DNA from: a virus
UHGV virus genome: UHGV-1390708
DNA length: 40,460 nt
Reading direction: 5' to 3' (one strand)
Each line of letters begins with the position of its first letter. The first letter of the stretch is position 1. The translations under genes were made by a program, and so were the position numbers. Of the stretch, positions 7,098-11,311 are shown piece after piece. The notes under the pieces were generated by a model, which was not told the origin of the DNA, did no database searches, and was given only the letters and a program-made list of their open reading frames with translations.

Positions 7098-8066
7098 TTA
7101 GTAGGTTATTTTTGTTGCGAATACTTCGCCTTTTACGATGGCTGTTATGATATTTTTAGCAACATCTTCTGATGCGCCAACCTTGATAAGGTCAGCAAGT
7201 ATTTTGTTATTTACTTCTTTCCGGTGAGCTTTATCCTTTGCTCTACGCTCTTCTTCGTCCTTGATTCTTTTTTCTTCTGCTATTCTGGCTTGCTCTTTTG
7301 CTTCAGCCTCGCGACGGATTCGTTCAGCCTCCTCCTGTGCTTTTCTGCGTTCTGCTTCAATTGCTGCCTGCTTTTCTCTTTCAGCTCGTTCTGCTGCCTC
7401 TTTTGCTTCGCGCTGTGCTCGTTGCTCGGCTTCAATGCGTTCACGCTCTGCACGTTCCGCTGCGGCCTTAGCTTCTGCTTCTCGCCTTGCTGCTGCTTCA
7501 ATTTCGGCTTTTGCCTTTGCTTCGGCTTCTGCTCTGGCTTTCTCTTCAGCTTCTCTTTTTAAGCGTTCTTCATGCTCTCGCTTTTCCTGCTCCGCTTTGA
7601 GTCTTGCCTCTTCTCTTTGGCGGTCAAATTCGCGATCCATCAAAATCGCTATTTCATGGTCAGACTCAATTTGCTTTGCGAGAGCTTCAGCTGCTGCCTT
7701 AGCTTCTTCTTCGGCTTTAATCCGTGCCTGCTCCTCCTCATAATCAGTAAGAGGCTGGCGCGCCTTGGCTTTCAGTTCATCAAGGCGATCGCGCACTGTC
7801 TTGCGGTTGGCATCAATTAGCTTTGGAATTTCCTTCAGTTCAGCAACAAGGTCTTTGCCAAGACCATCGAGATATGTTTTCGTCTGCGCAACTTTATACG
7901 CCAGAGAAGCGATCTCCTTTCTGCCCTTTGCCGTTGTGATATCAGGCACAAAGGACATAACTTCACGTTCAACCTTTTGAAGGATTTCTTCAATCTGGTC
8001 GGCAGACTGAAATACAGTCATTGCATTTGCTTTTTCAATAACAACTAAATCTGTTACTTCACTCAT
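7098..8066 (-). CDS. Large coiled-coil protein, 322 aa from MSEVTDLVV. It has a globular N-terminal domain (possibly DUF1351-like), a long E/A/K/R low-complexity helix and a short C-terminal domain.
   Basis: GGAGG Shine-Dalgarno sequence before the ATG at 8066. About 150 aa of EAEAKAKAEIEAAARREAEAK-type sequence. Confidence 0.6.
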   Translation of the reverse strand: MSEVTDLVVIEKANAMTVFQSADQIEEILQKVEREVMSFVPDITTAKGRKEIASLAYKVAQTKTYLDGLGKDLVAELKEIPKLIDANRKTVRDRLDELKAKARQPLTDYEEEQARIKAEEEAKAAAEALAKQIESDHEIAILMDREFDRQREEARLKAEQEKREHEERLKREAEEKARAEAEAKAKAEIEAAARREAEAKAAAERAERERIEAEQRAQREAKEAAERAEREKQAAIEAERRKAQEEAERIRREAEAKEQARIAEEKRIKDEEERRAKDKAHRKEVNNKILADLIKVGASEDVAKNIITAIVKGEVFATKITY

Positions 8067-8077
8067 ATATCCTCCGT

Positions 8078-8107
8078 CAAAAAAATTGCCCTCACACTGG
8101 AGGGCAA
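8078..8107 (-). terminator. Intrinsic terminator inside the pL operon (tL-like).
   Basis: Minus-strand hairpin TTGCCCTC-CAGTGT-GAGGGCAA followed by TTTTTTT. Confidence 0.7.
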
Positions 8108-8241
8108 AGAAGATTTCCAATAATCAGAACAAGTCGGCTCCTGTTTAGTTACGAGCGACATTGCTCCGTGTATTCACTCGTTGGAATGAATACACAGCGC
8201 AGTGTTTATTCTGTTGTTTATGCCAAAAATAAAGGCCACCA

Positions 8242-8442
8242 TCAGGCAGCCTTGTTATTCTGTTTACCAAGTTCTCTGGCAATCATTGCCGTCGTTCGTA
8301 TTGCCCATTTATCGACATATTTCCCATCCTCCATTACAGGGAACATTTCTTCAGGCTTAACCATGCATTCCGATTGCAGCTTGCATCCATTGCATCGCTT
8401 GAATTGTCCACACCATTGATTTTTATCAATAGTCGTAGTCAT
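8242..8442 (-). CDS. ral: Ral restriction-alleviation protein, 66 aa.
   Basis: MTTTIDKNQWCGQFKRCNGCKLQSECMVKPEEMF... matches my recollection of lambda Ral. It sits in the N-to-cIII interval. Confidence 0.7.
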   Translation of the reverse strand: MTTTIDKNQWCGQFKRCNGCKLQSECMVKPEEMFPVMEDGKYVDKWAIRTTAMIARELGKQNNKAA

Positions 8443-8570: not shown

Positions 8571-8843
8571 TCATCTTGCTGTCAGTTGTTTTGATTTCCG
8601 GTAGCCTGCCGCGTAAATGGCTACGTTTGGCAGGCAAATACTTCCACTGCATTCATCTGCCTTCTTGCAGCGAAGGCTTCCGAGTGATGCTGCTTTGTCT
8701 GCTCTGACGCAACTAGAGATCTTTAGCGCAATTTTTCGCGCAAGTCTCTGCTCTTGCATTGCCTGTTCACGTTGAGCCTGCCTGCGTGCTCTGCGGCGAT
8801 TTCTGGCGTTATCGTCAGCCAGATATGTAATGACTACTGTCAT
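8571..8843 (-). CDS. N: N-family transcription antiterminator, 90 aa, with an N-terminal arginine-rich motif.
   Basis: Arginine-rich motif DDNARNRRRARRQAQREQ. The C-terminal AIYAAGYRKSKQLTAR resembles the P22 gp24 / phi21 N tail. GGAGG Shine-Dalgarno sequence. It is the first gene downstream of pL and nutL. Confidence 0.8.
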   Translation of the reverse strand: MTVVITYLADDNARNRRRARRQAQREQAMQEQRLARKIALKISSCVRADKAASLGSLRCKKADECSGSICLPNVAIYAAGYRKSKQLTAR

Positions 8844-9288: not shown

Positions 9289-9374
9289 AAGATAACTTAG
9301 GTTATAGGTGTGGTCAATAACCTAATTTATATTTTGTGGTAAATAAGTTATAAGTGATGGATAACAAAGGTATT
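9289..9374 (-). promoter_or_regulatory. OL: pL (-35 TTGACC at 9312-9317, -10 TATCTT at 9289-9294, 17-nt spacer) with OL operators.
   Basis: Operator sites are ATAACttagGTTAT (9292-9305), ATAACctaaTTTAT (9317-9330) and a degenerate ATAACaaagGTATT (9361-9374). Confidence 0.7.
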
Positions 9375-9496: not shown

Positions 9497-9530
9497 AAAG
9501 AAAACCCGGCGCTGAGGCCGGGTGTTTTTA
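9497..9530 (-). terminator. Intrinsic terminator after the cI-linked moron. The hairpin has T-runs on both strands.
   Basis: CCCGGC-gctgag-GCCGGG. The minus strand continues TTTTCTTTTCC. Confidence 0.75.
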
Positions 9531-9824
9531 GTCTTTTCTTTTGCTTAGCATTTCGTCGATTTCTAAGTCAATACGATATTGATCTATTGCTTTTCTCTCG
9601 TTTGGGGTTGGTATTTTATACTGTTCAATTAGATCTGTTGTGTATTTTATTTCATCTAATGTGATTTTTATATCAGAGAGAATCTCTTTTATATCAATTA
9701 GATGCTCTTCTTCTTTTGCGCGATTAGAGCTATGTTCAATCACTTGAGATAGCTTTTTACTAATGCTTAGCAAAACAAAAAGAATGATGACCAAAACAAC
9801 AACAAAAACTATCAGAAATTCCAT
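9528..9824 (-). CDS. Membrane-anchored coiled-coil protein, 98 aa, family unknown. A lysogen-expressed moron in the rex position.
   Basis: GGAGGG Shine-Dalgarno sequence 3 nt before the ATG, 40 nt after the cI stop. N-terminal TM segment EFLIVFVVVLVIILFVLLSI followed by a charged helical region. Clearly AT-rich relative to the flanks. It has its own terminator. Confidence 0.75.
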   Translation of the reverse strand: MEFLIVFVVVLVIILFVLLSISKKLSQVIEHSSNRAKEEEHLIDIKEILSDIKITLDEIKYTTDLIEQYKIPTPNERKAIDQYRIDLEIDEMLSKRKD

Positions 9825-9864: not shown

Positions 9865-10572
9865 TTACCAACTATGAGACGACCAGAATACTCTGCCAAT
9901 AATCCTTACGGTTTCATGAAATTCATCTCTATCCATTACTTCATCCGGGTACTCTTCGCGATTTATTGATCTGATTATCACCGATGTAGGGGTGGCGATT
10001 AATGTTTTTACTCGTAACAAATCAGACTGGCAAATAGCGTAGGTTTTACCATCTCTGATGGTGGTATCTTGCGTGTTAACACCAACAACATCGCCATCGT
10101 GAAGCGTTGGTTCCATGCTTTGCCCTACAACCCTAACTAGCTTGGCTGATCTTTCAGATACTCCCATCTTTTTCAGATAGTGCTTTCTGAAAACCAAAGA
10201 GAACTCCGATGATTCCTCTAGCTCGCAGCTACCGCTTCCAGCTGAAAGCGAAACGTTAAGAAGAGGCAACGCAACAAACTCGTCATCGTTTCTTTTAATG
10301 TCTTCCCATACCACAGCTTTTAAAGATGACTCACGGACATTGGATGGTTCTTCATGTGCACCATCCCTCATTTCACCAATACCAGAACTAAGCCATTCAG
10401 GGCGCACTTTTAAAGCATTGGCTAATTCAACCATCTTGCGAGATCCGTTTGTTTTACCGGACGACATCTTCTGTATGGCTGGCTGAGATATTCCAACCAT
10501 GTCAGCAAGCTGTGATTGTGATACCCCTGCTGAGCTCATGGCTGCATTTAGTCTTTCTGCGAATGTTTTCAT
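9865..10572 (-). CDS. cI: CI-type prophage repressor (HTH_XRE plus S24 LexA-like autopeptidase), 235 aa from MKTFAERLN.
   Basis: HTH segment SQSQLADMVGISQPAIQKMSSG. Ala-Gly candidate cleavage site in LSAGSG. Ser in GQSMEPT and Lys in LRVK. The track start at 10602 is a TTG codon inside an operator. Confidence 0.85.
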   Translation of the reverse strand: MKTFAERLNAAMSSAGVSQSQLADMVGISQPAIQKMSSGKTNGSRKMVELANALKVRPEWLSSGIGEMRDGAHEEPSNVRESSLKAVVWEDIKRNDDEFVALPLLNVSLSAGSGSCELEESSEFSLVFRKHYLKKMGVSERSAKLVRVVGQSMEPTLHDGDVVGVNTQDTTIRDGKTYAICQSDLLRVKTLIATPTSVIIRSINREEYPDEVMDRDEFHETVRIIGRVFWSSHSW

Positions 10573-10584
10573 ACCCACAAATCT

Positions 10585-10650
10585 ATAACTACGGTTATCC
10601 AAAGTAAAATAACAAAGGTTATTGCTATTTTTTATAACTTGAGTTATCTT
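10585..10650. promoter_or_regulatory. OR: OR: three 14-bp operators ATAAC-N4-GTTAT interleaved with pR and a candidate pRM.
   Basis: Perfect sites at 10585-10598, 10609-10622 and 10634-10647. pR has -35 TTGCTA (10622-10627) and -10 TATCTT (10645-10650), 17-nt spacer. Candidate pRM -10 is TATAGA (minus strand, 10582-10587), 9 nt from the cI ATG. Confidence 0.75.
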
Positions 10651-10683
10651 TGGTTATAAGTAATGACCACAAGAGGTATGCTC

Positions 10684-10908
10684 ATGAATTTAGTAATTCA
10701 ACGAGCCTTGAAAATTGTCGGTAGCCAAAAGCGCCTTGCCGACAAGTGTGGTGTAACGCAGCCAGCAGTACACAAATGGCTGAAAGGCGGGTTGGTCTCT
10801 CCAGAGAAAGTTACCGCCATCGTTAACGCCACTGGAGGGCAGATCAAGGCTTACGAAATTCGCCCCGATTTGCCACACCTGTTTCCAAAACCGAATCAGG
10901 CAGCATAA
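10684..10908 (+). CDS. cro: Cro-type HTH repressor, 74 aa from MNLVIQRAL.
   Basis: AAGAGG Shine-Dalgarno sequence 7 nt upstream of the ATG at 10684. HTH segment QKRLADKCGVTQPAVHKWLKG. It is the first gene after pR. Confidence 0.8.
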   Translation: MNLVIQRALKIVGSQKRLADKCGVTQPAVHKWLKGGLVSPEKVTAIVNATGGQIKAYEIRPDLPHLFPKPNQAA

Positions 10909-10915
10909 GTAACAC

Positions 10916-10960
10916 CGCTCTTTAACAGTCATGGTCCTCATTCCCGCCGAAATGCGGGAA
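10916..10960 (+). promoter_or_regulatory. nutR: nutR: boxA CGCTCTTTAACA plus boxB hairpin TTCCCGC-CGAAAT-GCGGGAA (10941-10960).
   Basis: Read directly. The boxB sequence is the same as at nutL. Confidence 0.75.
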
Positions 10961-11007
10961 TACAACGCGCATAAGTTGATGCGCATAACTTCTTATTTGC
11001 TAAGGAA

Positions 11008-11040
11008 ATACTTACATATGGTTCGTGCAAACAAACGCAA
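11008..11040 (-). promoter_or_regulatory. pRE: pRE: CII-binding TTGC-N6-TTGC (11027-11040) and -10 AAGTAT (11008-11013).
   Basis: The minus strand reads TTGCGTTTGTTTGCacgaaccatatgtAAGTAT. This is lambda-type and overlaps the cII start. Confidence 0.75.
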
Positions 11041-11311
11041 CGAGGCTCTAAGAATCGAGAGTGCGTTGCTTAACAAAATCGCAATGCTTGGAACTGAGAA
11101 AACAGCGGAAGCTGTGGGAGTTGATAAGTCGCAGATCAGCAGGTGGAAGAGGGACTGGATTCCAAAGTTCTCAATGCTGCTTGCTGTTCTTGAATGGGGT
11201 GTCGTTGACGACGACATGGCCCGATTGGCACGACAAGTTGCTTCGATTCTCACCAATAAAAAACGCCCGGCGGCAACCGAGCGTTCTGATCAAATACAAA
11301 TGGAATTTTAA
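11018..11311 (+). CDS. cII: CII transcriptional activator, 97 aa.
   Basis: MVRANKRNEALRIESALLNKIAMLGTEKTAEAVGVDKSQISRWKRDWIPKF is lambda CII as I recall it. Confidence 0.9.
   Translation: MVRANKRNEALRIESALLNKIAMLGTEKTAEAVGVDKSQISRWKRDWIPKFSMLLAVLEWGVVDDDMARLARQVASILTNKKRPAATERSDQIQMEF

Follow-up and report, generated by a model that had tools for sequence, protein, structure and literature searches.

Organization of the cI-cro region

The virus genome UHGV-1390708, a stretch of 40,460 bp that was analysed over its whole length and is referred to here as the window, is a prophage of a P22-like podovirus (CUS-3/HK620 type), and the subject of this study is a set of palindromes in its immunity region. 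A cI repressor gene (9865-10572, minus strand) and a cro gene (10684-10908, plus strand) diverge from a 111-bp gap, which is the arrangement of a lambdoid immunity region, and this right operator region (OR) contains three 14-bp sites of the form ATAAC-N4-GTTAT (ATAACNNNNGTTAT). OR3 (ATAACtacgGTTAT, 10585-10598, centre tacg) is closest to cI and overlaps the candidate -10 element of pRM, the proposed cI promoter; OR2 (ATAACaaagGTTAT, 10609-10622, centre aaag) lies in the middle, and its final T is the first T of the candidate -35 element of the rightward promoter pR; and OR1 (ATAACttgaGTTAT, 10634-10647, centre ttga) is closest to cro, and its final TAT opens the candidate pR -10 element. All three are exact matches and their centres lie 24 bp and then 25 bp apart, which bears out a preliminary description of this DNA. 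All six OR arms are identical, which is unusual, and the 111-bp gap contains no other repeated motif.

A search of the window for the 14-bp pattern returned four exact matches, compared with a mean of 0.00 and a maximum of 0 in 100 dinucleotide-preserving shuffles. The fourth perfect site (9292-9305) lies on the far side of cI, at the predicted leftward promoter pL, and was missing from the preliminary description, which had the three OR sites right. This site, OL1 (ATAACttagGTTAT), overlaps the pL -10 element, and a second left operator (OL) site, OL2 (ATAACctaaTTTAT, 9317-9330), has one mismatch, lies 25 bp from OL1 and abuts the pL -35 element. The locus therefore carries three dyad sites in OR together with one exact and one single-mismatch site at pL, against none expected by chance, as is characteristic of a lambdoid switch. 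The palindromes are very probably the operators of CI and Cro, and the OR1/OR2/OR3 logic of lambda that had been proposed for them is supported by comparison: a CI-type repressor and a Cro flank the sites, the sites recur at pL, and the half-site covaries with the recognition helices of the two proteins.

CI is a protein of 235 amino acids with an N-terminal helix-turn-helix (HTH) domain, whose helix 3 reads ISQPAIQKM, and a C-terminal S24 autopeptidase domain (Pfam Peptidase_S24, 1.4e-17; HTH_3, 7.8e-7). Its start, MKTFAERL, is kept among relatives. In a phmmer comparison with the PDB, the best solved structure was the N-terminal domain of the 434 repressor (1PER/2OR1/1R69), with an E-value of 3e-7 and 22 of 62 residues identical (~35%). 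The determinants of self-cleavage are present (the Ala-Gly site A111-G112 and the catalytic S152 and K189); G112, S152 and K189 are invariant in an alignment of eight relatives, and position 111 is Cys in a Kluyvera relative (L009). From these residues CI is predicted to be a self-cleaving repressor of the CI/LexA type.

Cro is a protein of 74 amino acids with the helix 3 sequence TQPAVHKW, and its gene is preceded by an AAGAGG Shine-Dalgarno sequence 7 nt upstream. It matches Pfam YdaS_toxin (1.1e-17) and P22_Cro (1.1e-5), and its closest PDB match is Xfaso 1 Cro (3BD1, 5e-5). The same 225-bp cro coding sequence is annotated in the Shiga toxin (Stx) 1a phage SH2026Stx1 and in RefSeq, and an alternative upstream cro ATG at 10663 is absent in the Stx2a phage PA28. 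CI (434-like) and Cro (lambda/Xfaso lineage) belong to different structural families. Despite this, their recognition helices share the residues at helix positions 1, 2, 3 and 6 (H1, H2, H3 and H6; Gln-Pro-Ala..Lys).

Covariation of half-sites and recognition helices

A dataset of 86 related loci was assembled, comprising six loci from other genera and 80 viral contigs that encode relatives of the repressor, and the DNA upstream of each cI was taken by position alone, with no motif requirement. Every locus with an intact CI helix 3 of the form (I/V/L)SQPAIQKM possesses perfect-arm ATAAC-N4-GTTAT sites at OR3 and OR1 and a third site in the middle, at the 24/25-bp spacing. This set includes the Stx1a phages, PA28, the lambdoid coliphage HK639, the Kluyvera relative L009 (47% overall CI identity) and an Enterobacter relative, L010 (41%). 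In L009 and L010 the C-terminal domain of CI is a different module, yet the helix and the operators are the same.

Within the ATAAC type, OR1 and OR3 have perfect arms in all relatives; the arm-conservation figure obtained by motif-based extraction is inflated, given that the pattern demanded perfect OR1 and OR3 arms, and the unbiased set is that of regions chosen by position alone. OR2 is the sole OR site with variable arms among relatives (ATAAT.., ACAAC.. and ..CTTAT). The centres also follow the position of the site: OR2 centres are always A/T-rich (aaag, aatt, aatg or aaaa), OR3 centres are G+C-rich (tacg, cacg, cgtg, tcag or cgag), and OR1 centres are ttga or ttgg. An AGTAAAA block between OR3 and OR2 is kept across diverged relatives.

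Relatives with other helices (L006, L007/L071, L070, L072-L074 and L076/L077) keep the 5-N4-5 geometry and the three-site layout and have a changed half-site. Four specificity groups can be distinguished, and the CI and Cro helices change in parallel across them. ATAAC-N4-GTTAT occurs with the CI helix (I/V/L)SQPAIQKM and the Cro helix (T/S)QPAVHKW; ATAGC-N4-GCTAT with M(S/A)QPSVWKL and KQPSVWAW; ATCGC-N4-GCGAT with MAQSS(V/I)N(K/R)L and (A/S)QSTICDW; and ACAAC-N4-GTTGT with VSQAAIQKI and TQQAVYKW.

These pairings were compared with the Cro 'evolutionary code' of Hall and Cordes, in which Gln at H1 pairs with A(+2), Ala at H3 with A(+5), Ser or Thr at H3 with G(+5), and Lys at H6 with C(+6) (as summarised in PMC6649833). 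For the Cro helix of the window, T-QPAVHK-W, the code predicts a half-site of xAxxAC, and the observed half-site, with its flanking base, is (T)ATAAC. The two sister groups with Ser or Thr at H3 have G at +5, as the code demands, and the code fits all four groups wherever the helix carries a code residue. The match to the code is strong indirect evidence that both CI and Cro read the sites.

The assignment of CI and Cro to different protein families, 434-like and all-helical on the one hand and lambda/Xfaso-type on the other, might suggest that only one of them uses ATAAC-N4-GTTAT and that its partner reads some other motif there, separate from these sites or overlapping them. This is very unlikely, as the two helices share H1-H3 and H6 (QPA..K) and change together across the groups, and as the gap offers no second repeated motif for the partner to read.

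Candidate promoters pR and pRM

The candidate pR consists of TTGCTA (10622-10627), a 17-bp spacer and TATCTT (10645-10650) on the plus strand, with a predicted start near 10657. TTGCTA shares 1 nt with OR2 and TATCTT shares 3 nt with OR1, so that the contacts described at the outset, OR2 touching the pR -35 element and OR1 overlapping the -10 element, hold by direct reading of the sequence. The pL candidate, which was detected by the promoter scan with 9 of 12 consensus positions, consists of TTGACC, a 17-bp spacer and TATCTT (9317 to 9289, minus strand). Its -35 element opens with the final base of the 9317 site and its -10 element with the final three bases of the 9292 site, and its predicted layout is the mirror image of the proposed pR. 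The two promoters thus share one design, in which a GTTAT arm supplies the first T of the -35 element and runs on into a further T (GTTAT followed by TGCTA at pR), and in which GT followed by TATCTT stands after a 17-bp spacer. Because of this mirror relation to pL, pR was kept, though only as a candidate. The form TATnnT of the pR -10 element is kept in relatives (TATCTT, TATCCT or TATTTT).

A lone GTTAT half-site (ctttGGTTATaag) occurs at 10653-10657, 6 bp downstream of OR1 and near the predicted pR start. It is kept in the E. coli variants (the window, SH2026Stx1 and PA28) and is absent from the HK639/Kluyvera type.

The candidate pRM (10582-10610, minus strand) has the -10 element TATAGA (10587 to 10582), which follows GT on the OR3 arm and so mirrors pR. 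TATAGA lies 9 nt from the cI ATG, whose A is at 10572, and its overlap with OR3 also stands as originally described. In all relatives a TATAnn hexamer sits on the OR3 arm at 8-9 nt from the start codon of cI, which lacks a Shine-Dalgarno sequence. Both features would fit a pRM transcript with little or no leader, like that of lambda.

The predicted promoters bear on a further explanation, in which the repeats act as nucleic-acid structure, either as nested hairpins in a transcript or as cruciform DNA, and not as protein sites. The RNA fold of 10575-10665 has an energy of -16.8 kcal/mol (z = -2.15 against shuffles), a value explained by the ability of each ATAAC to pair with any GTTAT. This z-score is modest and a trivial result of repeated palindromes, the arms are only 5 bp long with a 4-nt gap and A/T-rich pairing, and Rfam and tRNA searches gave no match. 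The predicted divergent starts lie outside the repeats, so that the repeats would be absent from the pR and pRM transcripts alike, and changes in the half-site track the recognition helices of the proteins. The structural explanation was rejected on the strength of the modest z-score and the missing Rfam and tRNA matches, and is extremely improbable.

Several observations weigh against the reading of the palindromes as operators of a lambdoid switch with these promoters. With identical arms in OR1, OR2 and OR3, it is unexplained on what basis the sites would fill in order. A Trabulsiella relative (L008), which was left out of the covariation comparison, shows no clear palindromes in its cI-cro gap; the covariation rests on four specificity groups, some of which have few independent members; and the database behind the Cro code may already have contained members of this family, which makes the test less than fully independent. 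The searchable literature yielded no data on binding, footprints, transcript starts or immunity for this repressor. As for the promoters, pR matches only 8 of 12 consensus positions and was missed by the scan, whose threshold was 9 of 12. The pRM -35 element is weak: TTTACT, TTTTAC or ATTTTA could serve within 10603-10610, of which TTTACT has a 15-bp spacer and matches 4 of 6 positions at best, and ATTTTA has a 17-bp spacer. Finally, the GenBank record of HK639 gives a putative pR, TTGGGT-17-AGTAAT, that sits 23 bp further downstream, beyond the TATCTT hexamer.

These promoter observations are what would be expected if the operators are genuine but the promoter layout is another one, with pR further downstream, cI preceded by a normal leader, and OR3 not occluding the pRM -10 element. 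At this locus, however, an HK639-style downstream pR (TTGAGT ... AGTAAT) would have a 14-bp spacer, which is not a functional spacing, and the proposed pR is preferred in the window for this reason. The TATCTT design also recurs at the pL found by the scan and in the annotated pL of HK639, the TATnnT and TATAnn hexamers on the OR1 and OR3 arms are kept in relatives, and the cI ATG has no Shine-Dalgarno sequence. The alternative layout is thus unlikely. The layout in which OR1 and OR2 cover pR and OR3 covers pRM remains plausible from the sequence, its exact promoter placements are somewhat probable, and its starts are predicted. In HK639 itself (HM208537, 2407-2435), a better pR candidate than the annotated one is TGGACA-17-TATCTT (9 of 12), which mirrors the annotated pL and overlaps OR1 and OR2.

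The leftward side and neighbouring genes

A perfect OL1 occupies the same position in 10 of the 11 ATAAC-type relatives scanned (all whose sequence reaches OL1), and the ..TTTAT variant of OL2 lies 25 bp from OL1 in 9 of the 10 relatives that show the OL pair. Relatives with the same operators differ in the cargo that separates cI from OL, and their OL-OR distance runs from 0.9 to 2.4 kb. A third, degenerate site, OL3 (ATAACaaagGTATT, 9361-9374), has two mismatches and is weak; sites with two mismatches are expected 14 times per window, so this one does not rise above chance and was left as 'possible'. In its place, HK639-type relatives have ATCACataaGTTAT at 21 bp from OL2.

Downstream of pL on the minus strand, a nutL-like sequence (boxA, 9243 to 9232; boxB, 9219 to 9202) precedes the gene for an N-type antiterminator (8571-8843; Pfam N_peptide, 2.7e-17), which is the first gene of the pL operon, and its boxB has the same loop as the boxB of nutR. 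The operon also encodes a Ral antirestriction protein (8242-8442, minus strand; Pfam PF11058, 1.6e-48). A 340-amino-acid open reading frame (ORF; 7098-8120, minus strand) has a long central region rich in Glu, Ala, Lys and Arg, probably a coiled coil, and no Pfam match; numerous spurious ORFs overlap it in the other frames.

Directly downstream of cI, in the slot of rex or sieB, lies an ORF for a membrane-type protein of 98 amino acids with an N-terminal hydrophobic helix (9528-9824, minus strand). It belongs to PHROG 18389 (unknown function; 1.8e-61) and has no Pfam match. A bidirectional hairpin terminator (9504-9523) follows, and the ORF is probably co-transcribed with cI and ended by this terminator. 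The cargo of the rex/sieB slot differs among relatives that have the same operators.

Downstream of cro on the plus strand, a nutR-like sequence comprises boxA (CGCTCTTTAACA, 10916-10927) and a boxB hairpin (10940-10961) with an 8-bp stem and the loop CGAAAT. It is followed by a lambda-type cII (11018-11311, plus strand; Pfam Phage_CII, 5e-48), and inside the start of cII lies a TTGC-N6-TTGC box of the pRE type on the minus strand (11027-11040; GCAAacaaacGCAA on the plus strand, which is TTGCGTTTGTTTGC on the minus strand). Owing to the orientation of this box, establishment transcripts would run antisense through cro and OR into cI. To the right of cII are genes for an O-type initiator and a DnaB helicase. 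N with its nut sites and cII with its pRE box therefore flank the immunity region, as expected of a lambdoid phage.

Distribution of the immunity type

The preliminary description had not recognised this specificity, but the type is neither new nor rare: the same operator type is found in HK639, in both Stx1a and Stx2a phages and in 3% of complete E. coli genomes, and it had been predicted for PA28. Of 5426 complete E. coli genomes, 163 contain the module or a close relative, 105 of which show at least 99% identity, and RefSeq annotates its regulator only as 'XRE family transcriptional regulator'. It is also present in 18 phage-collection records, all of them Stx phages. Nucleotide identity over the cI-cro module is 78.8% with PA28 and 94.7% and 99.8% with the Stx1a phages (SH2026Stx1 and Stx1a_10051). 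These Stx1a phages are of O26/O111/O157, and the present host of the module is a P22-like prophage and not an Stx phage.

PA28 (PST3; KP682381; Stx2a) has a CI that is 85% identical to that of the window and the same OR and OL half-sites and spacing, but differs in one arm mismatch in OR2 (ACAAC) and in its promoter hexamers (TTGCTC and TATTTT). Yin et al. (2015) listed ATAACCACGGTTAT, ACAACAATTGTTAT and ATAACTCATGTTAT, together with three sites on the N side, as putative PA28 operators identified in silico (Table S5; PMC4587872). In that table the sites between cI and cro are named OL1-3 and those on the N side OR1-3, which is swapped relative to the gene order in KP682381 (locus L002; 3720-3782 and 2493-2531, respectively).

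HK639 (HM208537; L091), an isolated lambdoid coliphage, has a CI N-terminal domain that is 85% identical to that of the window, three ATAAC-N4-GTTAT OR sites 24/25 bp apart and the same OL1 and OL2, and its annotated putative pL, TTGCCA-17-TATCTT, is of the same TATCTT design. It differs in the C-terminal module of CI, in the cargo between cI and OL, and in its use of put-type RNA antitermination instead of N and nut. Its GenBank record annotates no operators.

The recognition helices of CI and Cro are identical in the window, SH2026Stx1, PA28, the HK639-type loci and L009/L010, and the operator half-site, number and spacing in both OR and OL match the HK639/PA28/Stx1a-phage type. A literature text search for the four site sequences and for 'ATAAC-N4-GTTAT' returned only an irrelevant primer match, and papers on Stx1 O26 phages, Stx phage architecture and O145 CI types contained no operator or binding data for this CI. 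This is a widespread immunity type that had already been predicted in silico; it is no new specificity, and no experimental study of it was found.

Proposed mechanism and significance

In the proposed switch, a CI dimer, with its 434-like HTH and LexA-type S24 self-cleaving domain, would read each 14-bp site, and a Cro dimer would read the same sites after induction. The half-site (T)ATAAC would face Gln-Pro-Ala (positions 1-3) and Lys (position 6) of the recognition helix in both proteins. During lysogeny, CI bound at OR1 (over the pR -10 element) and at OR2 (at the pR -35 element) would keep cro, cII and the replication genes from being transcribed rightward, and CI on OL1 and OL2 would silence pL and N. 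OR2 is centred approximately 41 bp upstream of the predicted pRM start, and CI bound there would be placed to stimulate pRM; the corresponding distance in lambda is -42. At high CI concentrations, occupancy of OR3 over the pRM -10 element would turn cI off by negative autoregulation, and RecA-stimulated self-cleavage at Ala111-Gly112 would lift repression. The order in which the sites fill, cooperativity between them and activation of pRM are features that we infer from this layout.

Since all six OR arms are identical, any order of occupancy has to arise from the four central bases, from the flanking sequence or from cooperativity, and by analogy with 434 the central tetranucleotides may set the site hierarchy. 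If OR3 came close to OR1 in strength, CI would strongly repress its own promoter pRM and stay at low levels, leading to 'hair-trigger' behaviour. Such behaviour has reportedly been proposed for Stx phages by Koudelka's group, and several Stx phages carry this very module. The four pairs of helix and half-site, QPA/ATAAC, QPS/ATAGC, QS(S/T)/ATCGC and Q(A/Q)A/ACAAC, each common to two repressors from different structural families, would, if true, constitute a ready-made set of orthogonal switches. That the non-contacted central four bases (A/T-rich in OR2, G+C-rich in OR3) and cooperativity wholly set the occupancy order, and that the low-CI, hair-trigger and orthogonal-switch consequences follow jointly with this, is a tentative and rather doubtful proposal.

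The cassette is predicted to govern the induction of Stx1a phages (O26 and O111) and, as a close variant, of Stx2a phages of O157:H7. The operators define a concrete immunity group comprising HK639, PA28-type and SH2026Stx1-type phages and this P22-like prophage, and provide defined targets for studies of induction and toxin release; in practice they are of value to annotation and to the biology of Shiga-toxin phages. The series of helices and half-sites adds natural data to the problem of the Cro and CI recognition code, and the understanding of lambdoid switches is unchanged.

Comparison with known systems

The sites differ from the lambda and 434 operators, as stated in the preliminary description, and they differ also from those of 933W. 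The general plan is that of lambda, with divergent cI and cro, three OR sites approximately 24 bp apart, OR1 on the candidate pR -10 element, OR3 on the candidate pRM, and OL at pL upstream of N. Further points in common are a CI of the S24 self-cleaving kind, a cI gene without a Shine-Dalgarno sequence, and a lambda-type cII whose pRE box has the form TTGC-N6-TTGC. The half-site TATAAC is one base apart from the TATCAC of lambda, whose OR1 is quoted as TATCACCGCCAGTGGTA (PMC5977221). Gln at H1, Ala at H3 and Lys at H6 are common to this Cro helix and that of lambda Cro, and the one-base distance between the half-sites fits these shared residues. Unlike lambda, whose sites are 17 bp long with a central base pair and are all imperfect and different, the sites described here have a 14-bp core with the dyad axis between base pairs and six identical OR arms, and the DNA-binding domain of CI is 434-like.

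The operators of 434 repressor are 14 bp long, with conserved outer bases and a free centre, as seen in the structures of Anderson, Aggarwal and Harrison, and the non-contacted central bases tune affinity by indirect readout. The present locus is like 434 in the homology of the CI N-terminal domain, in which Gln at helix position 1 is kept, and in its 14-bp operators with an unconserved centre, and half-site positions 1, 3 and 4 (A-AA) are common with the ACAA of 434. It is unlike 434 in that the half-site is ATAAC and not ACAA(G/T), Gln29 and Gln33 of 434 are replaced by Pro and Lys, and Cro is of the lambda/Xfaso-type lineage and not a paralogue of the 434-Cro type. The 434 operator pattern ACAA-N6-TTGT has no matches in the window. 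On sequence grounds the locus is not a member of imm434, which it resembles in geometry only, and given its different operators, helix residues and Cro lineage, the phage is expected to be heteroimmune to 434.

The 933W immunity type was considered because the Cro of PA28 is annotated as 'Cro of BP-933W'. It occupies the same genomic slot in related Stx phages, has three OR sites and only two clear OL sites, as here, and has half-site cores of the AAC/GTT type. However, the two CI proteins are only 29% identical over 79 HTH residues (E-value 8e-4), and the 933W operators, as read from oR1-3 in NC_000924, are 15-mers of different sequence with a central base pair ((G/A)(A/T)AC-N5-GT(T/A)C), which together rule out 933W immunity for this locus. 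The repressor of BAA2326 (O104:H4) is lambda-like with weakly symmetric sites and is unrelated.

The Cro of the window falls within the same Pfam and PDB lineage as the family described by the evolutionary code (the lambda, N15 and P22 Cro lineage), and nothing in it contradicts the code. The present locus goes beyond that family in one respect, which is that a CI of unrelated fold carries the same four helix residues as its cognate Cro.

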